A stretch of DNA of 24,096 nucleotides from Hyphomicrobiales bacterium (GTDB lineage Bacteria > Pseudomonadota > Alphaproteobacteria > Rhizobiales > S144-35). A program made the position numbers and the translations under genes. The DNA is taken from NCBI GenBank assembly GCA_015494185.1, contig WGBT01000095.1, positions 1 to 24,096 of the forward strand, written 5' to 3'. This document shows, in pieces, positions 3,563 through 19,010 of the stretch (position 1 is its first letter; every line of letters begins with the position of its first letter). Under the pieces are notes generated by a model that saw only the letters and a program-made list of their open reading frames with translations, ran no database searches and was not told the origin of the DNA.

Positions 3563-3638
3563 TGGTGGGCGGTACTGGACTTGAACCAGTGACCCCTGCG
3601 ATGTGAACACAGTGCTCTACCAACTGAGCTAACCGCCC
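3563..3638 (-). tRNA. tRNA-Val (anticodon CAC), CCA encoded
   Basis: Reverse complement GGGCGGTTAGCTCAGTTGGTAGAGCA-CTGTG TT CAC AT CGCAG-GGGTCACTGGTTCAAGTCCAGTACCGCCCACCA, 76 nt cloverleaf. Confidence 0.97.
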
Positions 3639-3847: not shown

Positions 3848-4084
3848 GTCATTGATCGATTGATTGTCAAGACTGACCGTATTCATTTTTCGTTGGTTTG
3901 AAGATCACAGGCCGTGAAACAGTGAAAATTAAGGTGCCTTTACCAGGTGACAGCGAATGATGGGCAATGTTAAATGATAATTTGCTGCGGGCATGAGATG
4001 GTTGGGTAGGCGCAATTTGAACCGGAACGCCTTTCAAGAAAGCGTTTTTGGGGGTTGCGCCAGATTTCTGGGGGCACTGGGAAT

Positions 4085-7000
4085 ATGCAACGGCTTGCCA
4101 AGCCTATAGATGCGCTACGGCTTCATTATGATGTGGTCGTGGTTGGCTCCGGTTATGGTGGTGGTGTTGCGGCATCACGGTTGGCGCGCTGCGGGAAAAC
4201 GGTTTGTGTTTTAGAACGTGGTAAGGAATTTCTCACTGGCGATTTCCCGGACAGTTTGGCCAAGGTCAAAAGTGAATTGCAGATTGCCAACGGCAAAATG
4301 CATGCAGGCTCGCGTACGGCCTTGTTCGATTTACGTTTGGGGGCGGATGCGGCGATGCTGCTGGGCTGTGGGCTGGGAGGCGGATCGCTGATCAATGCCA
4401 ATGTGGCGATGCAGCCCGATCCGCGGGTGTTCGACGATCCGGTGTGGCCCGATGAAATCCGCCAAGATGATGCTTTGCAAGAGGGCTATGCCCGGGCTGC
4501 ACGCATGCTCAAGCCGCGTCCTTTTCCAGAAAAGAGTGATGTGCGCAAACGCCGAGCGCTGGAAAATTCGGCCCAGAAACTGGGATTTCAGTCGGTGCTG
4601 CCCCCGCTGACTGTGACATTTGATGCTCGTCGAAATGCGGCCAATGTTGAACAACCTGCCTGTATCGGTTGCGGTGATTGCGTGACGGGGTGCAATATCG
4701 GCGCGAAAAATACGGTTGCGCTTACCTATCTTGTCGATGCGGTGAATTTCGGCGCTGAAATCTTTGTTGAAACCGATGTGCATTTCATTCGCAAAGAGGG
4801 GGATAAGTGGCGGATTACTTTCGATTTGCCGGGGCATGGCCGGGAAAAATTCGGAGCCTCGCAATTATCGATTTGGGCCGATACGGTTATTCTTGCGGCC
4901 GGGGCCTTGGGGAGCAGTGAAATTTTGTTGCGCTCGCGTGATCGCGGGTTGAAGCTTTCAGACCAGCTCGGCAAACATCTTTCCGGCAATGGCGAAGTTT
5001 TGGGTTTTTCCTTCAATAACGATATTGCGGTTCATGCGGTTGGTTTTGGCACCGGCCGCAAACCGCCAGCCGAACCGGTCGGGCCCTCGACAACCGGGGC
5101 GATCGAGCTGCGAAAGACATTGGAGCTCGAACAGGGGATCGTCATTCACGATGGGGCCTTTCCAAGCGCCTTGGCCTCGGTTTTGGTGAAATTCTTTGCG
5201 CCAGGTCCGGCTCATTTTACGCGCGCCAGTGATTTGACATTTGCAGATGAGCTCGATGCTGCGGACCGCATTCTCAAGAGCCAGCTCTTAGGGCCTTATA
5301 CGGGAGCCATTGCCCATACCCAAATGCTGAGAGCAACCGGTCACGACAATGCGGGTGGACAGTTGGTCTTGGAAGGGGACCGGTTGGTGATCAAATGGCC
5401 GGGCGCGGCGCAACAGGCGGTCTTCAGCCATATGGAATCACAAATCGAACTGGCGGCCGCTGCAAGTGGGGGGCGTTATACCCGCGGGCCGATGGACCAT
5501 CATTTGCTTGCAGGAAAAACATTCTCAACGGCGCCGCTTGGCGGTTGCCGTATTGGGCGGGATCGTCTTTCCGGGGTGGTCAATCACAAATGTCAGGTTT
5601 TCGATGGTGCCGCTGACACCGATGTCACGACCGTTCATGAAGGGCTTTATGTGATCGATGGGGCGGTTGTGCCGCGCCCGCTTGGGGTGGCGCCGATGAT
5701 GACGATCGCGGCGCTGGCGGAACGGGCGATGATTCATCTGGCGCTGGATCATGGGTTGCGCTTTTCAGACGCCCCGGCTCAAGATGCGCCTTTGCGTGAC
5801 GCCTCAGGGCAAAAATCTGATGCGGTGGCTGGTGCTTCCGCCAAGGTTGGGGTTGAGTTCACCAAGAATGTTTCAGGTTTTGTCTCCACAGTGGAACATC
5901 GCGATTATCAAAAGGCCGCTGAAGCTGGCAAGGATGCCCGTTCCCCGCTGACGCTCAAGGCCACCATCCTTGTTGATGATGTTCAAAGTTTTATTTCGGA
6001 TAAATACCGTGCCGCACGCATGTTTGGATCGGTGACCTGTCCGGCGCTGTCCAACGCTCCAATGGAGATTTCCCACGGCGCCTTCAAGGTCTTGCAGGTG
6101 GCGGAAGCGGGCAAACGTACCCGGCATTTCGATTTCCGGATGACCCTGTCCAGCAAAGACAGCAGTGAACAATATTATCTGGCGGGACACAAGGTTGTCC
6201 CGGCCACCCGGGGGCTCGATTTTTGGGAAAATGTCTCCCAGCTATATGTCGATGTGTTTCGCGGCCGAAAAGGCCAGGGCGGACGGCTGGCGCGCGGCAT
6301 TCTGACCCTTAAATTTCCAGATTTCGTCACCGAACTGCGCACTTTGCGGGGAACGGGGGGGCGCACGACACTGGCCCGGCAGCAGGCTGAAGCCTTTTTC
6401 GCCGATATCCTCGGTGGTCCGCTGGCCAAAACTTTTGGGGCGCTTAGCGCGCCGGCCGTGGGACCGGGGCGGGGGCGTGTGTGGAAGCGCCGCGCACTGC
6501 GTCTGCCGTATCCCGAAACCCATGCGGTTACCACGGAAGATCATCTGTTGATCCGCCTGACCCGCTATCAGGGGGGCGACCGGGGAGCCGTGCTGATGGT
6601 CCATGATCTGGCCACATCAAGTCAGATTTTTGCAATCGATACCATCGAGACTTCGCTTTTGGAATATCTTTATGGGGCTGGATATGACTGTTGGCTATTG
6701 GATATGCGGGCTTCGCCGGACCTGCCTTATGCGGAAGGCAACTGGACCTTTGACGATATTGCCCGCCATGATCTTCCAGTTGCTGTCGATCGGGTCCGGG
6801 CGGTTACAGGCCAAGACCGCATTTCTCTCATTGCGCAGGGGATGGGAGGGGTGGCCTCTCTGATGGCCCTGGCGGATGGATTAGCAGGGGTGCGTTCGCT
6901 CATTGCGCTGCAGGCTGGGGCGGATATCATCACAAACTGGTTTCCGCAACGATTGTTGGCGTATTTGCGGCTTCCCCGTCTGTACCGCGTTTTAGGCGCC

Positions 7001-7531
7001 ATGACGGCCGATCCTCGGGCCGTTCCCATCCGTGGCATACATCGGTTTCTTGATACCGTCATTGGCATGACCATTAATCCCGAATCGGGGCTTTCCGGTC
7101 CGGCATTACTTTCAAGCCGTTATGCTGCGCTGTTTGGGACGCTGTTCAATCCCGATGAAGTCAGCTTTCAGACGCGGGCTTTTGGACTGCCGTTGGTGCT
7201 TGGACCTGTCGGCCTGCCGGCCTTGCGCCATCTGGCTCGGATGCGCCGTCAACGCCGGATTGTCGATGCCAGTGGAGGTGACAGCTATTTGCCGAGATTG
7301 GCCAATTTCAGTATTCCGGTCTGTTTCATTCACGGCTCGAAAAATCAATGTTTTGATGTGCAGGGCAGCAAGGCGAGTTTTGAGCGGTTTACGGCCATTC
7401 ATGGGCGTGCTGGATATGAGCATCACGTGATCCGTGATTATGGGCATTTGGATGGCTTGATTGCCGATCAGGCGGTGATCGACGTCTTTCCCATCATCTT
7501 GAAATTTCTCGAACGAACCCGCCGGGGGTGA
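4085..7531 (+). CDS. Cholesterol-oxidase-like GMC oxidoreductase fused to an uncharacterised middle domain and a C-terminal alpha/beta-hydrolase domain; catalytic residues apparently substituted
   Basis: GSGYGG FAD motif, VCVLERG, GCGLGGGSLINANV, CIGCGDCVTGC, ILAAGALGS, PLGGC, LYVIDGAVVP, TIAALAER; C-terminal YDCWLLDMRAS ... YGHLD hydrolase fold. ATG at 4085 preferred over the TTG at 4055. Confidence 0.85.
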   Translation: MQRLAKPIDALRLHYDVVVVGSGYGGGVAASRLARCGKTVCVLERGKEFLTGDFPDSLAKVKSELQIANGKMHAGSRTALFDLRLGADAAMLLGCGLGGGSLINANVAMQPDPRVFDDPVWPDEIRQDDALQEGYARAARMLKPRPFPEKSDVRKRRALENSAQKLGFQSVLPPLTVTFDARRNAANVEQPACIGCGDCVTGCNIGAKNTVALTYLVDAVNFGAEIFVETDVHFIRKEGDKWRITFDLPGHGREKFGASQLSIWADTVILAAGALGSSEILLRSRDRGLKLSDQLGKHLSGNGEVLGFSFNNDIAVHAVGFGTGRKPPAEPVGPSTTGAIELRKTLELEQGIVIHDGAFPSALASVLVKFFAPGPAHFTRASDLTFADELDAADRILKSQLLGPYTGAIAHTQMLRATGHDNAGGQLVLEGDRLVIKWPGAAQQAVFSHMESQIELAAAASGGRYTRGPMDHHLLAGKTFSTAPLGGCRIGRDRLSGVVNHKCQVFDGAADTDVTTVHEGLYVIDGAVVPRPLGVAPMMTIAALAERAMIHLALDHGLRFSDAPAQDAPLRDASGQKSDAVAGASAKVGVEFTKNVSGFVSTVEHRDYQKAAEAGKDARSPLTLKATILVDDVQSFISDKYRAARMFGSVTCPALSNAPMEISHGAFKVLQVAEAGKRTRHFDFRMTLSSKDSSEQYYLAGHKVVPATRGLDFWENVSQLYVDVFRGRKGQGGRLARGILTLKFPDFVTELRTLRGTGGRTTLARQQAEAFFADILGGPLAKTFGALSAPAVGPGRGRVWKRRALRLPYPETHAVTTEDHLLIRLTRYQGGDRGAVLMVHDLATSSQIFAIDTIETSLLEYLYGAGYDCWLLDMRASPDLPYAEGNWTFDDIARHDLPVAVDRVRAVTGQDRISLIAQGMGGVASLMALADGLAGVRSLIALQAGADIITNWFPQRLLAYLRLPRLYRVLGAMTADPRAVPIRGIHRFLDTVIGMTINPESGLSGPALLSSRYAALFGTLFNPDEVSFQTRAFGLPLVLGPVGLPALRHLARMRRQRRIVDASGGDSYLPRLANFSIPVCFIHGSKNQCFDVQGSKASFERFTAIHGRAGYEHHVIRDYGHLDGLIADQAVIDVFPIILKFLERTRRG

Positions 7532-7592
7532 TTTTCGGTGATTGCGCCCAGAGTTCTTGGAGGGGGGCGCCCAATCTTTGCCGATTTTCCGG

Positions 7593-7853
7593 TCAAGATT
7601 GCGATTGCCGTGAACAGTGTTCAAGTTCGGCTTCCAAGCGCTGGAAACGCCGTTCATAATGGGCCAGCAGTTGATTGGTCAGCTCGAAATGGCGTTGCTG
7701 TTGTTCCAGATATTCATGCATCAATTCCGAATAGCTTTTTCCTGATGGGGACTTCTGAGCTTTTCGCACACGCCACACGAGAATGAGATAGGCGCCGATC
7801 AACAAGATGATGGGTGTCCAGGAAATCAGAATTTCGAGATAAGAGTGTCCCAT
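7593..7853 (-). CDS. Small single-pass membrane protein with coiled-coil tail (86 aa, hypothetical)
   Basis: AGGAG Shine-Dalgarno; ATG directly abuts the upstream TGA; hydrophobic ILISWTPIILLIGAYLILVW followed by a basic stretch and an amphipathic/coiled-coil tail. Confidence 0.75.
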   Translation of the reverse strand: MGHSYLEILISWTPIILLIGAYLILVWRVRKAQKSPSGKSYSELMHEYLEQQQRHFELTNQLLAHYERRFQRLEAELEHCSRQSQS

Positions 7854-10868: not shown

Positions 10869-11435
10869 TCAAGGTTCAAGCTCGGTATCCCAATACAGAT
10901 AATCTAGCCAACTGTCATGCAAATAATTGGGCGGGAACAATCGGCCGTTTTTGTGCAACTGATGAACCGTTGGGCGATAGGGCGGCTGGGCTGGCATCAT
11001 ACCAGCCTCTTGGGGCATCTTGCCACCTTTTTTCAAATTGCAGGGGGCACAAGCGGTCACCACATTGTCCCAACGGGTTTGGCCGCCGCGGGAACGTGGG
11101 ATCAGGTGATCGAAGGTCAAGTCTGAGCGGCTGCCGCAATATTGGCAGCTGAAACGGTCGCGCAGAAAGACATTGAACCGGGTGAAAGCAGGGTAAAGGG
11201 CTGGCCGTACATAGGTTTTGAGGGAAACCACTGAAGGCAGTTTCATTTCGAAGCTGGGGCTGTGGACGCGATGGTCATATTCAGAAACGATATTGACACG
11301 GTCGAGAAACACGGCTTTGACCGCGTCCTGCCAACTCCATAGTGACAAGGGATAATAGCTTAACGGTTGATAATCGGCATTCAACACGAGTGCAGGAAAA
11401 GCCCCCGGCGACGTCGTGGTGTAGGCTGTACTCAT
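10869..11435 (-). CDS. HNH endonuclease (McrA/HNH_5-like, 188 aa)
   Basis: RDRFSCQYCG...TFDHLIPRSRGG...WDNVVTACAPCNLKKG: two CxxC Zn pairs and intact DH/N/N residues; GGGAG/AAGGG upstream of the ATG. Confidence 0.93.
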   Translation of the reverse strand: MSTAYTTTSPGAFPALVLNADYQPLSYYPLSLWSWQDAVKAVFLDRVNIVSEYDHRVHSPSFEMKLPSVVSLKTYVRPALYPAFTRFNVFLRDRFSCQYCGSRSDLTFDHLIPRSRGGQTRWDNVVTACAPCNLKKGGKMPQEAGMMPAQPPYRPTVHQLHKNGRLFPPNYLHDSWLDYLYWDTELEP

Positions 11436-11835: not shown

Positions 11836-12055
11836 GGGAGGGGGCACATCTGTCGGGACTTATACAGGAGATTTTAAGAGGAGAAATAATTTTGAAGGGG
11901 GAGAGCTTCCCGTTTTGCTTTTTTATATGTTTATGCTTTGAATGTGATCTGCAGGGGGCTTGCTTTCGTTCGTCGAAAGGATGGTTTGAAGGGGAAATGG
12001 AGCCAGAGGCTGCCGCGTAAGCTTTGAAAGTAATCATCGAGGAAAACAATCAAGA

Positions 12056-12495
12056 CCAGCCGGCCTGTAAGCCGGGTTCTGTGCGGGCCGGCGCGCCCGA
12101 AAAGACGCGCGGCCGTAGATGGCCATTCATCTAGGACGGCCATTGCTGGCGCGCCTCATGCAACCTACCCGGACAGTCAGGGGCTGGAAACGGCCCCGGA
12201 CCAGAGCGGTTCTGGCCCTCTGGCCCATGCTGTCCCTATTTGGTCTTGCTCCAGGTGGGGTTTACCATGACCGTTCCTGTTGCCAGGTTCGCGGTGCGCT
12301 CTTACCGCACCTTTTCACCCTTACCAATGCTTTCATGTCAACATTGGCGGTTTGCTTTCTGTGGCACTTTCCCTGGGGTCGCCCCCGCCGGGTGTTACCC
12401 GGCACCTTGTTTCCATGGAGCCCGGACTTTCCTCTGCCAAATTGGACCCCTGTTCGTTGTCGAGCCCATTCGACAGCGGCCATCCGGCCGGCTGG
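12056..12495 (-). ncRNA. rnpB: RNase P RNA, bacterial type A
   Basis: Reverse complement has GAGGAAAGTCCGGGCTCC, GGAAAGTGCCACAGAAA, GGGTGAAAAGGTGCGGTAAGAGCGCACCG, GGTAAACCCCACCTGGAGCAAG and ACAGAACCCGGCTTACAG; P1 is formed by CCAGCCGGCC / GGCCGGCTGG. Confidence 0.98.
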
Positions 12496-12525
12496 TGCTT
12501 TATAAGTGTGTTTTGTGGACCTTGC

Positions 12526-12628
12526 CGTCAAGTCTTTGGCTGGTCTTTTTGTGGAAGTCTGGTGAAAAGCCTTTTCGGAGAGGTGGAAATCACCTGAATG
12601 CTTATAAAGCCTTCAGAGACTATTGACG
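12526..12628. promoter_or_regulatory. Back-to-back putative -35 elements (TTGACG) for rnpB (12531-12526, minus) and tRNA-Val(GAC) (12623-12628, plus)
   Basis: The rnpB hexamer sits ~30 nt upstream of the RNA 5' end and the tRNA hexamer ~85 nt upstream of the tRNA; the -10 elements are ambiguous. Confidence 0.45.
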
Positions 12629-12711: not shown

Positions 12712-12786
12712 GGGCGCGTAGCTCAGTGGGAGAGCACTACGTTGACATCGTAGGGGTCGCAAGTTCGATCCTTGCCGCGCCCACCA
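12712..12786 (+). tRNA. tRNA-Val (anticodon GAC), CCA encoded
   Basis: GGGCGCGTAGCTCAGTGGGAGAGCA-CTACG TT GAC AT CGTAG-GGGTCGCAAGTTCGATCCTTGCCGCGCCCACCA. Confidence 0.97.
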
Positions 12787-17175: not shown

Positions 17176-17705
17176 GTTGTCACCGGCGTCATGATCTGAT
17201 TTGCTCTTTGATACCCTAAAAACTCTCATTTTGGTGTTTTTGGCAAGAGGAGAAGAGCACCTGTCGGCAATGCTGGTTTTAGGCCTAGGGAAATCCCTTA
17301 TACGCCATAACTGTCTGATATGTATGTATAAAACATCTGTTCTGCGGCTAAAAATTTAATCCGTAGGGGGAGGGATGGGGGAAGGAATTGCGACAAATTG
17401 TAATTTTTTGCTGGTGCTTCGGCCCGTAATATGTACAATAGCTCTTGTCTGGATGGCATCCGGGATTGTGCGCCGCGGGTTGGCAGACCGTTTGGGATGC
17501 AACCTGAATTTTATGGCGTAAGCGCCAAAGCGTTGATCATTTTTGTGCCTTTTTTTCGGTGCAAGAATACGACGTGCGGGGACGAACTTTAGAAGTTGGC
17601 CGTTGTTCCAATGCAATGGCTATCATGTTTTAAAAGTTTCCGACCGGATGGGGGATCATCCTCAATACGAAATAAATTTTGACGATTCAAACGAGGGGAG
17701 GAATT

Positions 17706-19010
17706 ATGCCCAAGCTAAATCGTCGTGAATTCACGAAAATCATGGGGGCAGCAGGTGCTGTCGCCGGTACGTCCGCTATGTCCATGCCTGCCATTGCGGC
17801 TGGTAAAGGCAAAGTGGTCATCATCGGTGGGGGGATCGGCGGTTCAACCGTGGCCCATCACATCAAGAAGAAAGCTCCAAGCATCGACGTGGTCTTGATT
17901 ACCGCGGCGAAAGACTATACGACTTGCTTCTTCTCAAACTGGTATATGGCCGGGTTGCGGAGCTTTTCCGACATCACCCACGACTATTCCGGCCTTGCCA
18001 AATTGGGCGTGAAGGTCGTTGTCGATACCGCTGTTGGCGTCGATACGGCGAAAAAGACGGTGTCCCTCAAGGGCGGCGGGACCGAGTCTTATGACAAGCT
18101 CGTCGTCTCACCGGGCATTGACTTCAAATGGGATACCATTGAAGGTTATGATGCCAAAGTGGCTGAAAAAATCCCGCATGCCTGGGTCGGCGGCTCTCAG
18201 AGCAAGATTCTGAAGGCTCAGCTCGATGCCATGGCCGATGGGGCAACCTATATTCAAGCACCTCCGCCCAATCCGTTCCGTTGTCCTCCTGGGCCGCAAG
18301 AACGGGTGTCGCTCATCGCCTATATGTTCAAGAAGAAAAAGCCGAAATCAAAGATCATTACCCTGGATCCGAAGCCGAAATTCTCCAAAGGCCCAGCTTT
18401 CATGGCCGCTTGGAAAGAGCTTTATCCTGGCATGATCACCGCCAATCTCTCGACCAATAAAGATGAGCATTTCCGTGTCGTGAAGGTTGATCCGAGCACC
18501 AATCAGGTGACCACCAAAGGCGGTGAGAAATTCGGTAAGAAGGGCGATGTTCTCAACATCATTCCCGCGCAAAAAGCCGGTAAAATTGCCTTTACGGCCG
18601 GTCTGACAGAAGGTGACTGGTGCCCAATTGATCCGGTTGACTTCTCATCGACAAAAGCCAAAGATGTGCATGTTTTAGGTGACGCCTCGATCGCCAAGCC
18701 GATGCCGAAATCCGGCTTCTCAGCCAACAGCCAGGCCAAAGTGGTGGCCGCTTCAATCGTACATGCGCTTGGTGGCGGCAAAAAACCGAAGTCGAAATAC
18801 CGCAACACTTGCTACTCGGCAATTGACGGTGATTCGGCCATCAAGGTTGGTGTCGCTTATCATGTTACCGATCTTGGCGAATTCCAGAAGGTGCCGGGGA
18901 CTGGCTTTGTCTCCAAGCCAACCGATGACCGCAAGAAGTGGGACGAAAACTTTGGTCAGGCCGAAGCCTGGTACAAAGGGATCACGGCGGATACTTTTGC
19001 CAAAGGCTAA
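17706..19010 (+). CDS. Sulfide dehydrogenase (flavocytochrome c) flavoprotein subunit, FccB/SoxF family, Tat-exported
   Basis: Tat signal LNRREFTK...MPAIA; GGGIGG FAD motif; TCFFSN (covalent-FAD Cys position); FRCPPGPQER and NTCYS (redox disulfide Cys pair); MPKSGFSANSQAK; strong GAGGGGAGG RBS. Confidence 0.92.
   Translation: MPKLNRREFTKIMGAAGAVAGTSAMSMPAIAAGKGKVVIIGGGIGGSTVAHHIKKKAPSIDVVLITAAKDYTTCFFSNWYMAGLRSFSDITHDYSGLAKLGVKVVVDTAVGVDTAKKTVSLKGGGTESYDKLVVSPGIDFKWDTIEGYDAKVAEKIPHAWVGGSQSKILKAQLDAMADGATYIQAPPPNPFRCPPGPQERVSLIAYMFKKKKPKSKIITLDPKPKFSKGPAFMAAWKELYPGMITANLSTNKDEHFRVVKVDPSTNQVTTKGGEKFGKKGDVLNIIPAQKAGKIAFTAGLTEGDWCPIDPVDFSSTKAKDVHVLGDASIAKPMPKSGFSANSQAKVVAASIVHALGGGKKPKSKYRNTCYSAIDGDSAIKVGVAYHVTDLGEFQKVPGTGFVSKPTDDRKKWDENFGQAEAWYKGITADTFAKG

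Follow-up and report, generated by a model that had tools for sequence, protein, structure and literature searches.

Enzymes of the GMC flavoprotein superfamily use a His together with a second His or an Asn as proton acceptor and as partner of the flavin N5, and mutants of the two corresponding residues of cholesterol oxidase, His447 and Asn485, show activities reduced by two to three orders of magnitude. In the glucose dehydrogenase of B. cepacia that depends on flavin adenine dinucleotide (FAD), termed FAD-GDH, a Cys loop holds a 3Fe-4S cluster through which electrons move from FAD to a partner subunit (PMC6719666). Here we analyze a gene (P0002) in a stretch of 24,096 nucleotides, referred to below as the window (contig WGBT01000095.1 of assembly GCA_015494185.1, Hyphomicrobiales bacterium), which codes for a member of a widespread family of proteins fusing a GMC flavoprotein, a small beta-barrel and an alpha/beta-hydrolase. 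The residues expected to carry out catalysis are replaced in both enzymatic domains, and it is very probable that we are dealing with a maintained protein that has neither canonical catalytic set. It is likely, as judged from the sequence, that this protein does not catalyse the ancestral reactions. The joint reading which we favour, and which we regard as fairly probable, is that of a maintained member of this three-module family which has lost the capacity for the ancestral reactions and whose likely partner is a phosphoesterase-GMC protein. The gene is located as follows:

4085..7531, plus strand: whole gene, a GMC flavoprotein / beta-barrel / alpha/beta-hydrolase fusion of 1148 amino acids, based on the open reading frame (ORF), its translation, Pfam matches and an AlphaFold2 (AF2) model

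The frame is open from 4055 to 7531 on the plus strand, and its likely start was placed at the ATG at 4085 because homologues begin at the Met encoded there. An earlier reading of the DNA made without database searches (the sequence-only reading) had delimited the feature as 4085-5760; this extent covers the GMC domain, but the gene runs on to 7531. Membership in the GMC superfamily, defined by Pfam families PF00732 and PF05199 above their gathering scores, is indicated by matches to GMC_oxred_N (residues 88-284; 49.7 bits, cutoff 23) and GMC_oxred_C (residues 482-545; 38.7 bits, cutoff 24.6), and both the GxGxxG FAD motif and the flavin loop of the superfamily are present. Alignments with more than 100 members of the fusion family cover 100% of the length and show the same collinear order of the three modules, including the four-Cys motif. 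Two codons of the GMC module are central to our analysis:

5531..5533, plus strand: GCG codon of Ala483, aligned with the GMC catalytic His (His447 of cholesterol oxidase), within STAPLGGC (5525-5548)
5690..5692, plus strand: GCG codon of Ala536, aligned with Asn485 of cholesterol oxidase, within GVAPMMTIAALAER (5684-5725)

Both GMC active-site residues are Ala, as the sequence-only reading had proposed, and this double replacement is far from chance. In an alignment of the family profile with PDB sequences, the family segment itvHPLGGC is placed on fcyHPLGGC of Streptomyces cholesterol oxidase, so that Ala483 falls on His447 (position 442 of the SEQRES record when the printed alignment is counted, His447 in the usual numbering). 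With the same profile, the segment GvNPlltitalaer (GVNPLLTITALAER) is placed on cholesterol oxidase GVNPFVTITALAER and Ala536 falls on Asn485, an alignment that was also obtained with the window sequence alone, without a profile. There are no gaps around either motif, and the alignment puts no alternative His or Asn at the catalytic positions; such a placement would have spoken against the proposal. Among 118 close homologues, the first motif is TVHPLGGC or SVHPLGGC and the second GVNPLLT, and none besides the window protein is Ala/Ala; in a larger set of 267 family proteins, 147 of which represent clusters at 50% identity, His occupies the first catalytic site in 256 and Asn the second in 254. 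The catalytic His with its His or Asn counterpart, a hallmark of the GMC superfamily, is lacking in the window protein.

The GMC module finds its best fold match in Streptomyces cholesterol oxidase (Foldseek E 6e-27, template modelling (TM) score by target 0.76), the closest solved fold; 1CC2, 1CBO and 1IJH, which are mutants of cholesterol oxidase of the kind mentioned above, are among the matches. Together with the label 'cholesterol oxidase' that JGI gives to many homologues, this could suggest an ordinary cholesterol oxidase or another sterol-oxidising enzyme, as some automatic annotations of homologues have it. However, the window protein scores 149.3 bits against the NCBIfam ChoxAB equivalog NF058674, whose cutoff is 850, and it is about 20% identical to solved cholesterol oxidases; both mechanistic residues are absent, and the two extra domains and the Cys cluster are foreign to cholesterol oxidases. 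We consider this identification, against which the sequence-only reading had already argued, extremely improbable.

Two findings go further than the sequence-only reading: the other enzymatic domain is also disabled, and the loss is partly common to a small clade (see below). The relevant features of the hydrolase are:

6500..7528, plus strand: alpha/beta-hydrolase domain (residues ~806-1148), acid-lipase-like, based on Pfam Abhydrolase_1 and on a sequence and fold match to gastric/lysosomal acid lipase
6602..6607, plus strand: His840-Asp841 in place of the oxyanion-hole HG of the family (HGLGVSS changed to HDLATSS), based on the family alignment
6833..6847, plus strand: nucleophile elbow AQGMG, with Gly919 (GGG, 6839-6841) in place of the family Cys (AHCFG), based on the family alignment
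7445..7447, plus strand: His1121 (in YGHLD), the conserved C-terminal hydrolase His, kept; an invariant column

The domain is recognized by Abhydrolase_1 (PF00561; residues 835-963, 30.5 bits, cutoff 25.8) and its model matches acid lipase folds with TM-scores by target of 0.66-0.70. The family elbow AHCFGAT with its Cys nucleophile reads AQGMGGV in the window protein; with Gly919, the protein has none of the nucleophiles (Ser, Cys or Asp) that competent alpha/beta-hydrolases carry in the Sm-x-Nu-x-Sm elbow. The oxyanion HG is absent (HD), but the catalytic His1121 is present. Of 223 family proteins aligned at the nucleophile column, 208 have Cys and 14 have Gly, and because those with the Gly elbow mostly keep the GMC His and Asn, the hydrolase has been disabled repeatedly in the family. 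Lineages with Gly for Cys are represented by P0124 and also by P0128, P0132, P0136, P0143, P0150, P0153, P0173, P0200, P0210, P0217 and P0226, and all of these except P0124 retain the GMC His and Asn. P0124, which is located elsewhere in the tree, combines Gln/Gly at the GMC sites with HD and the Gly elbow and has lost both catalytic sets; this double loss may be independent of that in the window clade, and the trajectory may thus be recurrent.

The family thus combines three modules: a ChoD/cholesterol-oxidase-like GMC flavoprotein whose four-Cys loop is probably an iron-sulfur (Fe-S) site, a small beta-barrel, and an acid-lipase-like hydrolase in which Cys is the nucleophile. In the window lineage, Ala/Ala stands in place of the hydride-transfer pair of His and Asn, Gly in place of the hydrolase Cys and HD in place of the oxyanion HG. 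As both catalytic sets are replaced, neither alcohol oxidation nor acyl hydrolysis by the usual mechanism of the family is expected, and the automatic labels, cholesterol oxidase and hydrolase, are mechanistically wrong for this lineage. The predicted cofactor-binding part of the protein is kept:

4145..4162, plus strand: GSGYGG, dinucleotide-binding (FAD) motif, kept; invariant in an alignment of 115 sequences
4364..4402, plus strand: GCGLGGGSLINAN, flavin-loop motif, kept; aligned to cholesterol oxidase GRGVGGGSLVNGG and mostly invariant in the family
4661..4693, plus strand: CIGCGDCVTGC, four-Cys motif (C193, C196, C199, C203), probable Fe-S site, based on the motif and a weak alignment to FAD-GDH

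These three motifs, and STAPLGGC and GVAPMMTIAALAER with their two GCG codons, were located exactly where the sequence-only reading had placed them. The four Cys are present in 258 of the 267 family proteins. Matches of the motif to Fer4 families of Pfam are weak and below the cutoff, and a weak alignment (E 0.044; query 179-300 against chain 197-318) places the loop on the Cys212-222 loop of B. cepacia FAD-GDH. Judged from the motif and this placement, the Cx2Cx2Cx3C loop probably binds an Fe-S cluster.

The loss of both catalytic centres could also mark a dying gene, that is, a recent pseudogene still without stop codons, or an artefact of sequencing, assembly or binning, the more so as the genome is a fragmented metagenome bin of 426 contigs. 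The 3.4-kb frame is, however, intact, as had been pointed out before, and this holds for two genomes, because the gene of the nearest relative, P0003 (assembly GCA_054014085.1), whose protein shows 63% identity, is intact too. Between these two genes, the ratio of non-synonymous to synonymous substitution rates (dN/dS, Nei-Gojobori) is 0.17 overall (0.135 for the GMC module, 0.18 for the barrel and 0.23 for the hydrolase), which is not near 1, the value indicative of decay; it is approximate, and to that extent a weaker argument for a maintained protein, as dS is 1.7 and near saturation. Pairs of catalytically intact orthologues at 0.60-0.66 amino-acid identity gave 0.11-0.33 with the same method, and since 0.17 lies within this range, the clade appears to be as constrained as working enzymes. 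The window DNA was found in hydrothermal-vent metagenomes, and contigs from a second sample (X2) show the codons of Ala483 and Ala536 unchanged and also the same Gly codon. A strain diverged by about 9% has GCC (still Ala) at 5690-5692 and GGA (still Gly) at 919; because both the second-sample contigs and this strain encode Ala, the Ala codons are not an assembly slip. A sequencing error had been judged unlikely from the start, and the changes from His to Ala and from Asn to Ala indeed need two base changes each. Among the 40 best-supported strain differences in the vent metagenome contigs, 37 are synonymous third-position changes and only 3 are non-synonymous. Decay and artefact are contradicted by these data, and we regard them as very improbable. 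No RNA runs containing the fusion gene were found. The alternative offered by the sequence-only reading, a maintained pseudo-enzyme or a re-purposed flavoprotein that might be the partner of an active paralogue, is supported by alignment, dN/dS, strain differences and paralogues, as far as sequence data can tell.

Intact GMC paralogues, for which a search had been suggested, are indeed encoded in the same genome, and their arrangement can be compared with that of the family in related bacteria. A stand-alone GMC gene (about 560 amino acids) is located 130-230 nt upstream of the fusion gene and on the same strand in 32 of 40 canonical loci, at least four of the other 8 being cut off or short of upstream DNA. 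In Hyphomicrobium sp. 1Nfss2.1 (L038), the sole canonical locus with annotated neighbours, this gene is preceded, with overlapping stop and start, by the gene of a 663-amino-acid metallophosphoesterase-like membrane protein. The canonical Hyphomicrobiaceae locus (L007-L046, e.g. L038:2128-9435) resembles a conserved operon. One of these loci, L046, is located on a 256-kb contig (JBNOAI010000011.1) labelled Leptospira interrogans strain LS0056; its GMC pair is near that of L030, an alphaproteobacterial metagenome-assembled genome, with ~0.06 substitutions per site for the fusion domain and up to 0.18 for the upstream GMC, and because it groups inside Hyphomicrobiaceae clades the contig is probably a contaminant in the Leptospira assembly.

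At the window locus, no stand-alone GMC gene is found directly upstream, and the gene has neither of the two upstream partners; a tRNA gene and a divergent mraZ-rsmH-ftsI cluster are located upstream, and unrelated genes downstream. Contig C346 of the same genome (L086:1095-5363, minus strand), however, encodes a 1422-amino-acid protein in which a metallophosphoesterase-like multi-pass membrane protein is fused to a GMC protein of the Fe-S type. Over 707 alignment columns, its N-terminal part shares 37% identity with the phosphoesterase-membrane protein of Hyphomicrobium, and its C-terminal GMC part is 48% identical to the window GMC module, with TVHPLGGC, GVNPLLTISAVA and the Cys loop intact. 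An orthologue with 64% identity (P0160, 1447 amino acids) is present in the same assembly as P0003, but as the two genomes are related, this co-occurrence counts as one observation, not two. Two more His-intact GMC paralogues of the window genome are found on contigs C391 (complete, 555 amino acids) and C385 (cut by the contig end), and the window gene is the sole barrel-plus-hydrolase copy in this bin, which is 85% complete. The C346 fusion corresponds to the first two genes of the canonical operon that contains the fusion gene in related bacteria, and in the window lineage the three-part system seems to persist in the form of two genes that are not linked, of which one is intact and the other disabled in its catalysis. 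The most likely role of the window protein would be that of a non-catalytic partner of the intact C346 phosphoesterase-GMC fusion, in which it could serve as an electron relay via FAD and Fe-S, a ligand binder or a scaffold. A specific role as partner or electron relay is, on its own, tentative. In its most explicit form, that of a 'double-dead' subunit which would have kept FAD and Fe-S, given up both catalyses and become an electron-relay or regulatory partner of the membrane-bound phosphoesterase-GMC enzyme, the proposal is possible, if somewhat doubtful.

P0003 has Ser/His at the two GMC sites and shares with the window protein the HD and the Gly elbow of the hydrolase, and P0096, a fragment, also has Ser/His at the GMC sites; the loss is therefore partly shared by a small clade. 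Further members beyond P0003 and P0096 were not recovered in a search of 5.8 billion proteins, there are no clade orthologues among 40 genomes of the same order, and no synteny is seen between the window and the P0003 locus. At 358 columns conserved to at least 95% in the other 113 members, the window protein and P0003 each differ at 97 positions, 75 of which are shared; for the other members the median is 3 differences and the highest number 27. Only 7% of the conserved columns are changed in residues 1-295, which include the FAD motifs and the Cys loop, compared with 39% for the substrate part (296-482), 36% for the barrel and 38% for the hydrolase. The FAD/Cys part is thus nearly unchanged and purifying selection is ordinary, which indicates that the protein still does something that needs the fold and probably the cofactors. 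The stem of the clade is long in the trees, with 0.5-0.9 substitutions per site, and its tips are of ordinary length (about 0.3). FastTree placed it as sister to P0132, which keeps the GMC His and Asn and shares HD..ATSS and the Gly elbow, and this would mean that the hydrolase died first. The grouping was not reproduced in an IQ-TREE mixture-model tree, and the approximately unbiased (AU) test (p 0.44) neither rejects nor supports it; we therefore do not adopt this order of events.

The strong conservation of the cofactor-binding part is also compatible with a protein that is still an enzyme, with an altered chemistry that does not need His and Asn, such as electron transfer with a lipid-like substrate, a reductase- or desaturase-type step, a non-redox role of the flavin, or catalysis by a relocated base. 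Forty-two family-invariant positions show the same new residue in the window protein and P0003 (27 of them in the hydrolase), which would point to a new conserved constraint and not to drift. A candidate for a relocated base is His355 of the window protein, which lies in a loop of the substrate domain at a position occupied by Glu or Gln in the family, and P0003 and P0096 have a His at the second catalytic site. Non-canonical chemistry of the GMC fold is known, and a hydroxynitrile lyase is among the fold matches. In contrast, positions 483, 536 and 355 differ between the clade members (A/A/H in the window protein against S/H/Q), so that no common new active-site residue is visible and A/A versus S/H at the GMC sites leaves none shared there. 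Ala at both sites also leaves no proton acceptor or donor near the flavin N5, and the fact that the second domain is disabled too fits better to a general loss of catalysis. Altered chemistry thus seems rather unlikely to us.

Several points nevertheless weigh against the reading of a protein without ancestral catalysis that serves as partner of the C346 fusion. Mutants of cholesterol oxidase His447, such as 1CC2 and 1CBO, keep some residual activity, and proteins of the GMC fold without the His exist, for example fatty-acid photodecarboxylase, so that a changed chemistry is conceivable; His355 adds to this. The binding of FAD and Fe-S by the window protein is predicted from motifs only, and the partnership is based on the gene content of two genomes that are not independent, in which the genes are unlinked. 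A literature search gave no paper on the fusion family and thus no biochemistry for any member; nor did it yield a description of a GMC pseudo-enzyme that is maintained. Large families often include pseudo-enzymes, and the significance of the present case is moderate, as its function is proposed from sequence. Even so, a maintained family member that would have given up the ancestral reactions represents a natural experiment: one lineage of a widespread family lost the catalytic residues of two enzyme domains and kept the flavin/Fe-S module under normal constraint. This suggests that the family has a role independent of catalysis, for instance in complex formation, electron relay or ligand binding, and makes the window lineage a handle on the role of the canonical phosphoesterase / GMC / GMC-hydrolase system.

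The overall architecture of the protein is supported by an AF2 model of the whole chain built from 115 homologues (predicted local distance difference test (pLDDT) 85.4, predicted TM-score (pTM) 0.70), which shows three modules: the GMC flavoprotein (residues 1-560), a beta-rich domain with trailing helices (~588-785) and the alpha/beta-hydrolase (~806-1148). The middle domain was also modelled alone:

5846..6439, plus strand: middle domain (residues ~588-785), an 8-stranded up-and-down beta-barrel with helices, based on an AF2 model of the domain alone (pLDDT 91)

No Pfam family matches this domain, and in the PDB there is no convincing solved relative, just generic small barrels with Z of about 9; it is also present in other 'cholesterol oxidase' fusions in AFDB. 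An acetoacetate-decarboxylase-like fold was considered for the barrel and was not supported. An ORF at 7112-7657 on the minus strand, which overlaps the end of the fusion gene, is regarded as spurious, with no Pfam hit and no counterpart downstream of the P0003 gene.

The remainder of the window contains further recognizable genes. The start of the division and cell-wall cluster occupies 3-2987 on the minus strand, with mraZ (2490-2987), rsmH/mraW (1459-2493), a short ORF and the 5' part of an ftsI-like gene for a penicillin-binding protein transpeptidase (3-977). Two tRNA genes are located at 3566-3638 (minus strand), within the 1.1 kb that separate mraZ from the fusion gene, and at 12712-12783 (plus strand). 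A class A bacterial RNase P RNA (310 bits) is found at 12052-12495 on the minus strand, and ORFs at 12119-12626 (plus strand) that overlap it are probably not genes. A stand-alone HNH endonuclease gene (10869-11435, minus strand) lies between a sodium:solute symporter gene and the RNase P RNA. At 17679-19010 on the plus strand there is a gene resembling the flavoprotein of flavocytochrome c sulfide dehydrogenase (FCSD domains), next to which no gene for a cytochrome subunit is apparent; it fits a hydrothermal-vent origin.

Compared with known systems, the GMC module resembles class I cholesterol oxidase (Streptomyces ChoA / Brevibacterium; 1B4V, 1MXT, 1COY) in its two-domain GMC fold, and M. 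tuberculosis ChoD (P9WMV9) is the best Swiss-Prot model match by predicted fold. The FAD motifs and the frames of the HPLGGC and GVNPxxTIxALAER motifs are common to both. In contrast to cholesterol oxidase, to which its sequence is as distant as stated above, the window protein has Ala at the positions of His447 and Asn485, a CxxCxxCxxxC loop where cholesterol oxidase has GEVIYGNNAGK, a fused barrel and hydrolase, and an N-terminus without signal peptide-like character. The HMMER alignments with cholesterol oxidase do not extend over the surroundings of Glu361, its isomerisation base. The next fold matches of the GMC module are Fe-S-bearing dehydrogenases for fructose and glucose, namely the direct-electron-transfer FAD dehydrogenases represented by B. 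cepacia FAD-GDH (6A2U) and Gluconobacter fructose dehydrogenase (FDH; 7W2J/8JEJ); the Cys-rich loop of FAD-GDH is equivalently placed according to the weak alignment described above. The spacing of the Cys differs (CCx4Cx3C in the FAD-GDH/FDH type, Cx2Cx2Cx3C in the window protein), these dehydrogenases keep their catalytic residues, unlike the window protein, and no hitchhiker or cytochrome subunit genes are found near the fusion gene within the window. The C-terminal module (residues ~806-1148) resembles gastric/lysosomal acid lipase (1HLG, 1K8Q, 6V7N) in fold and sequence, and the G-x-C-x-G elbow of the family is reminiscent of the lipase box of PhaC, a Cys alpha/beta hydrolase, with a weak match to TIGR01836; in contrast to acid lipases and PhaC, the window protein has Gly as nucleophile residue and HD for the oxyanion HG, and the His alone is left. 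By its architecture, the window protein belongs to the GMC / beta-barrel / Cys-hydrolase fusion family itself (~1145 amino acids; Hyphomicrobium, Sinorhizobium and many others), which has thousands of members annotated as 'cholesterol oxidase' or 'alpha/beta fold hydrolase' and with which it is collinear, with 42-47% identity over 100% of the length. All four signatures of canonical members (TVHPLGGC, GVNPLLT, HGLGVSS and AHCFGAT) are lost in the window protein, which differs at 27% of the near-invariant columns of the family, and while canonical members sit behind a stand-alone GMC gene, the window gene stands alone beside a tRNA gene and the mraZ cluster.

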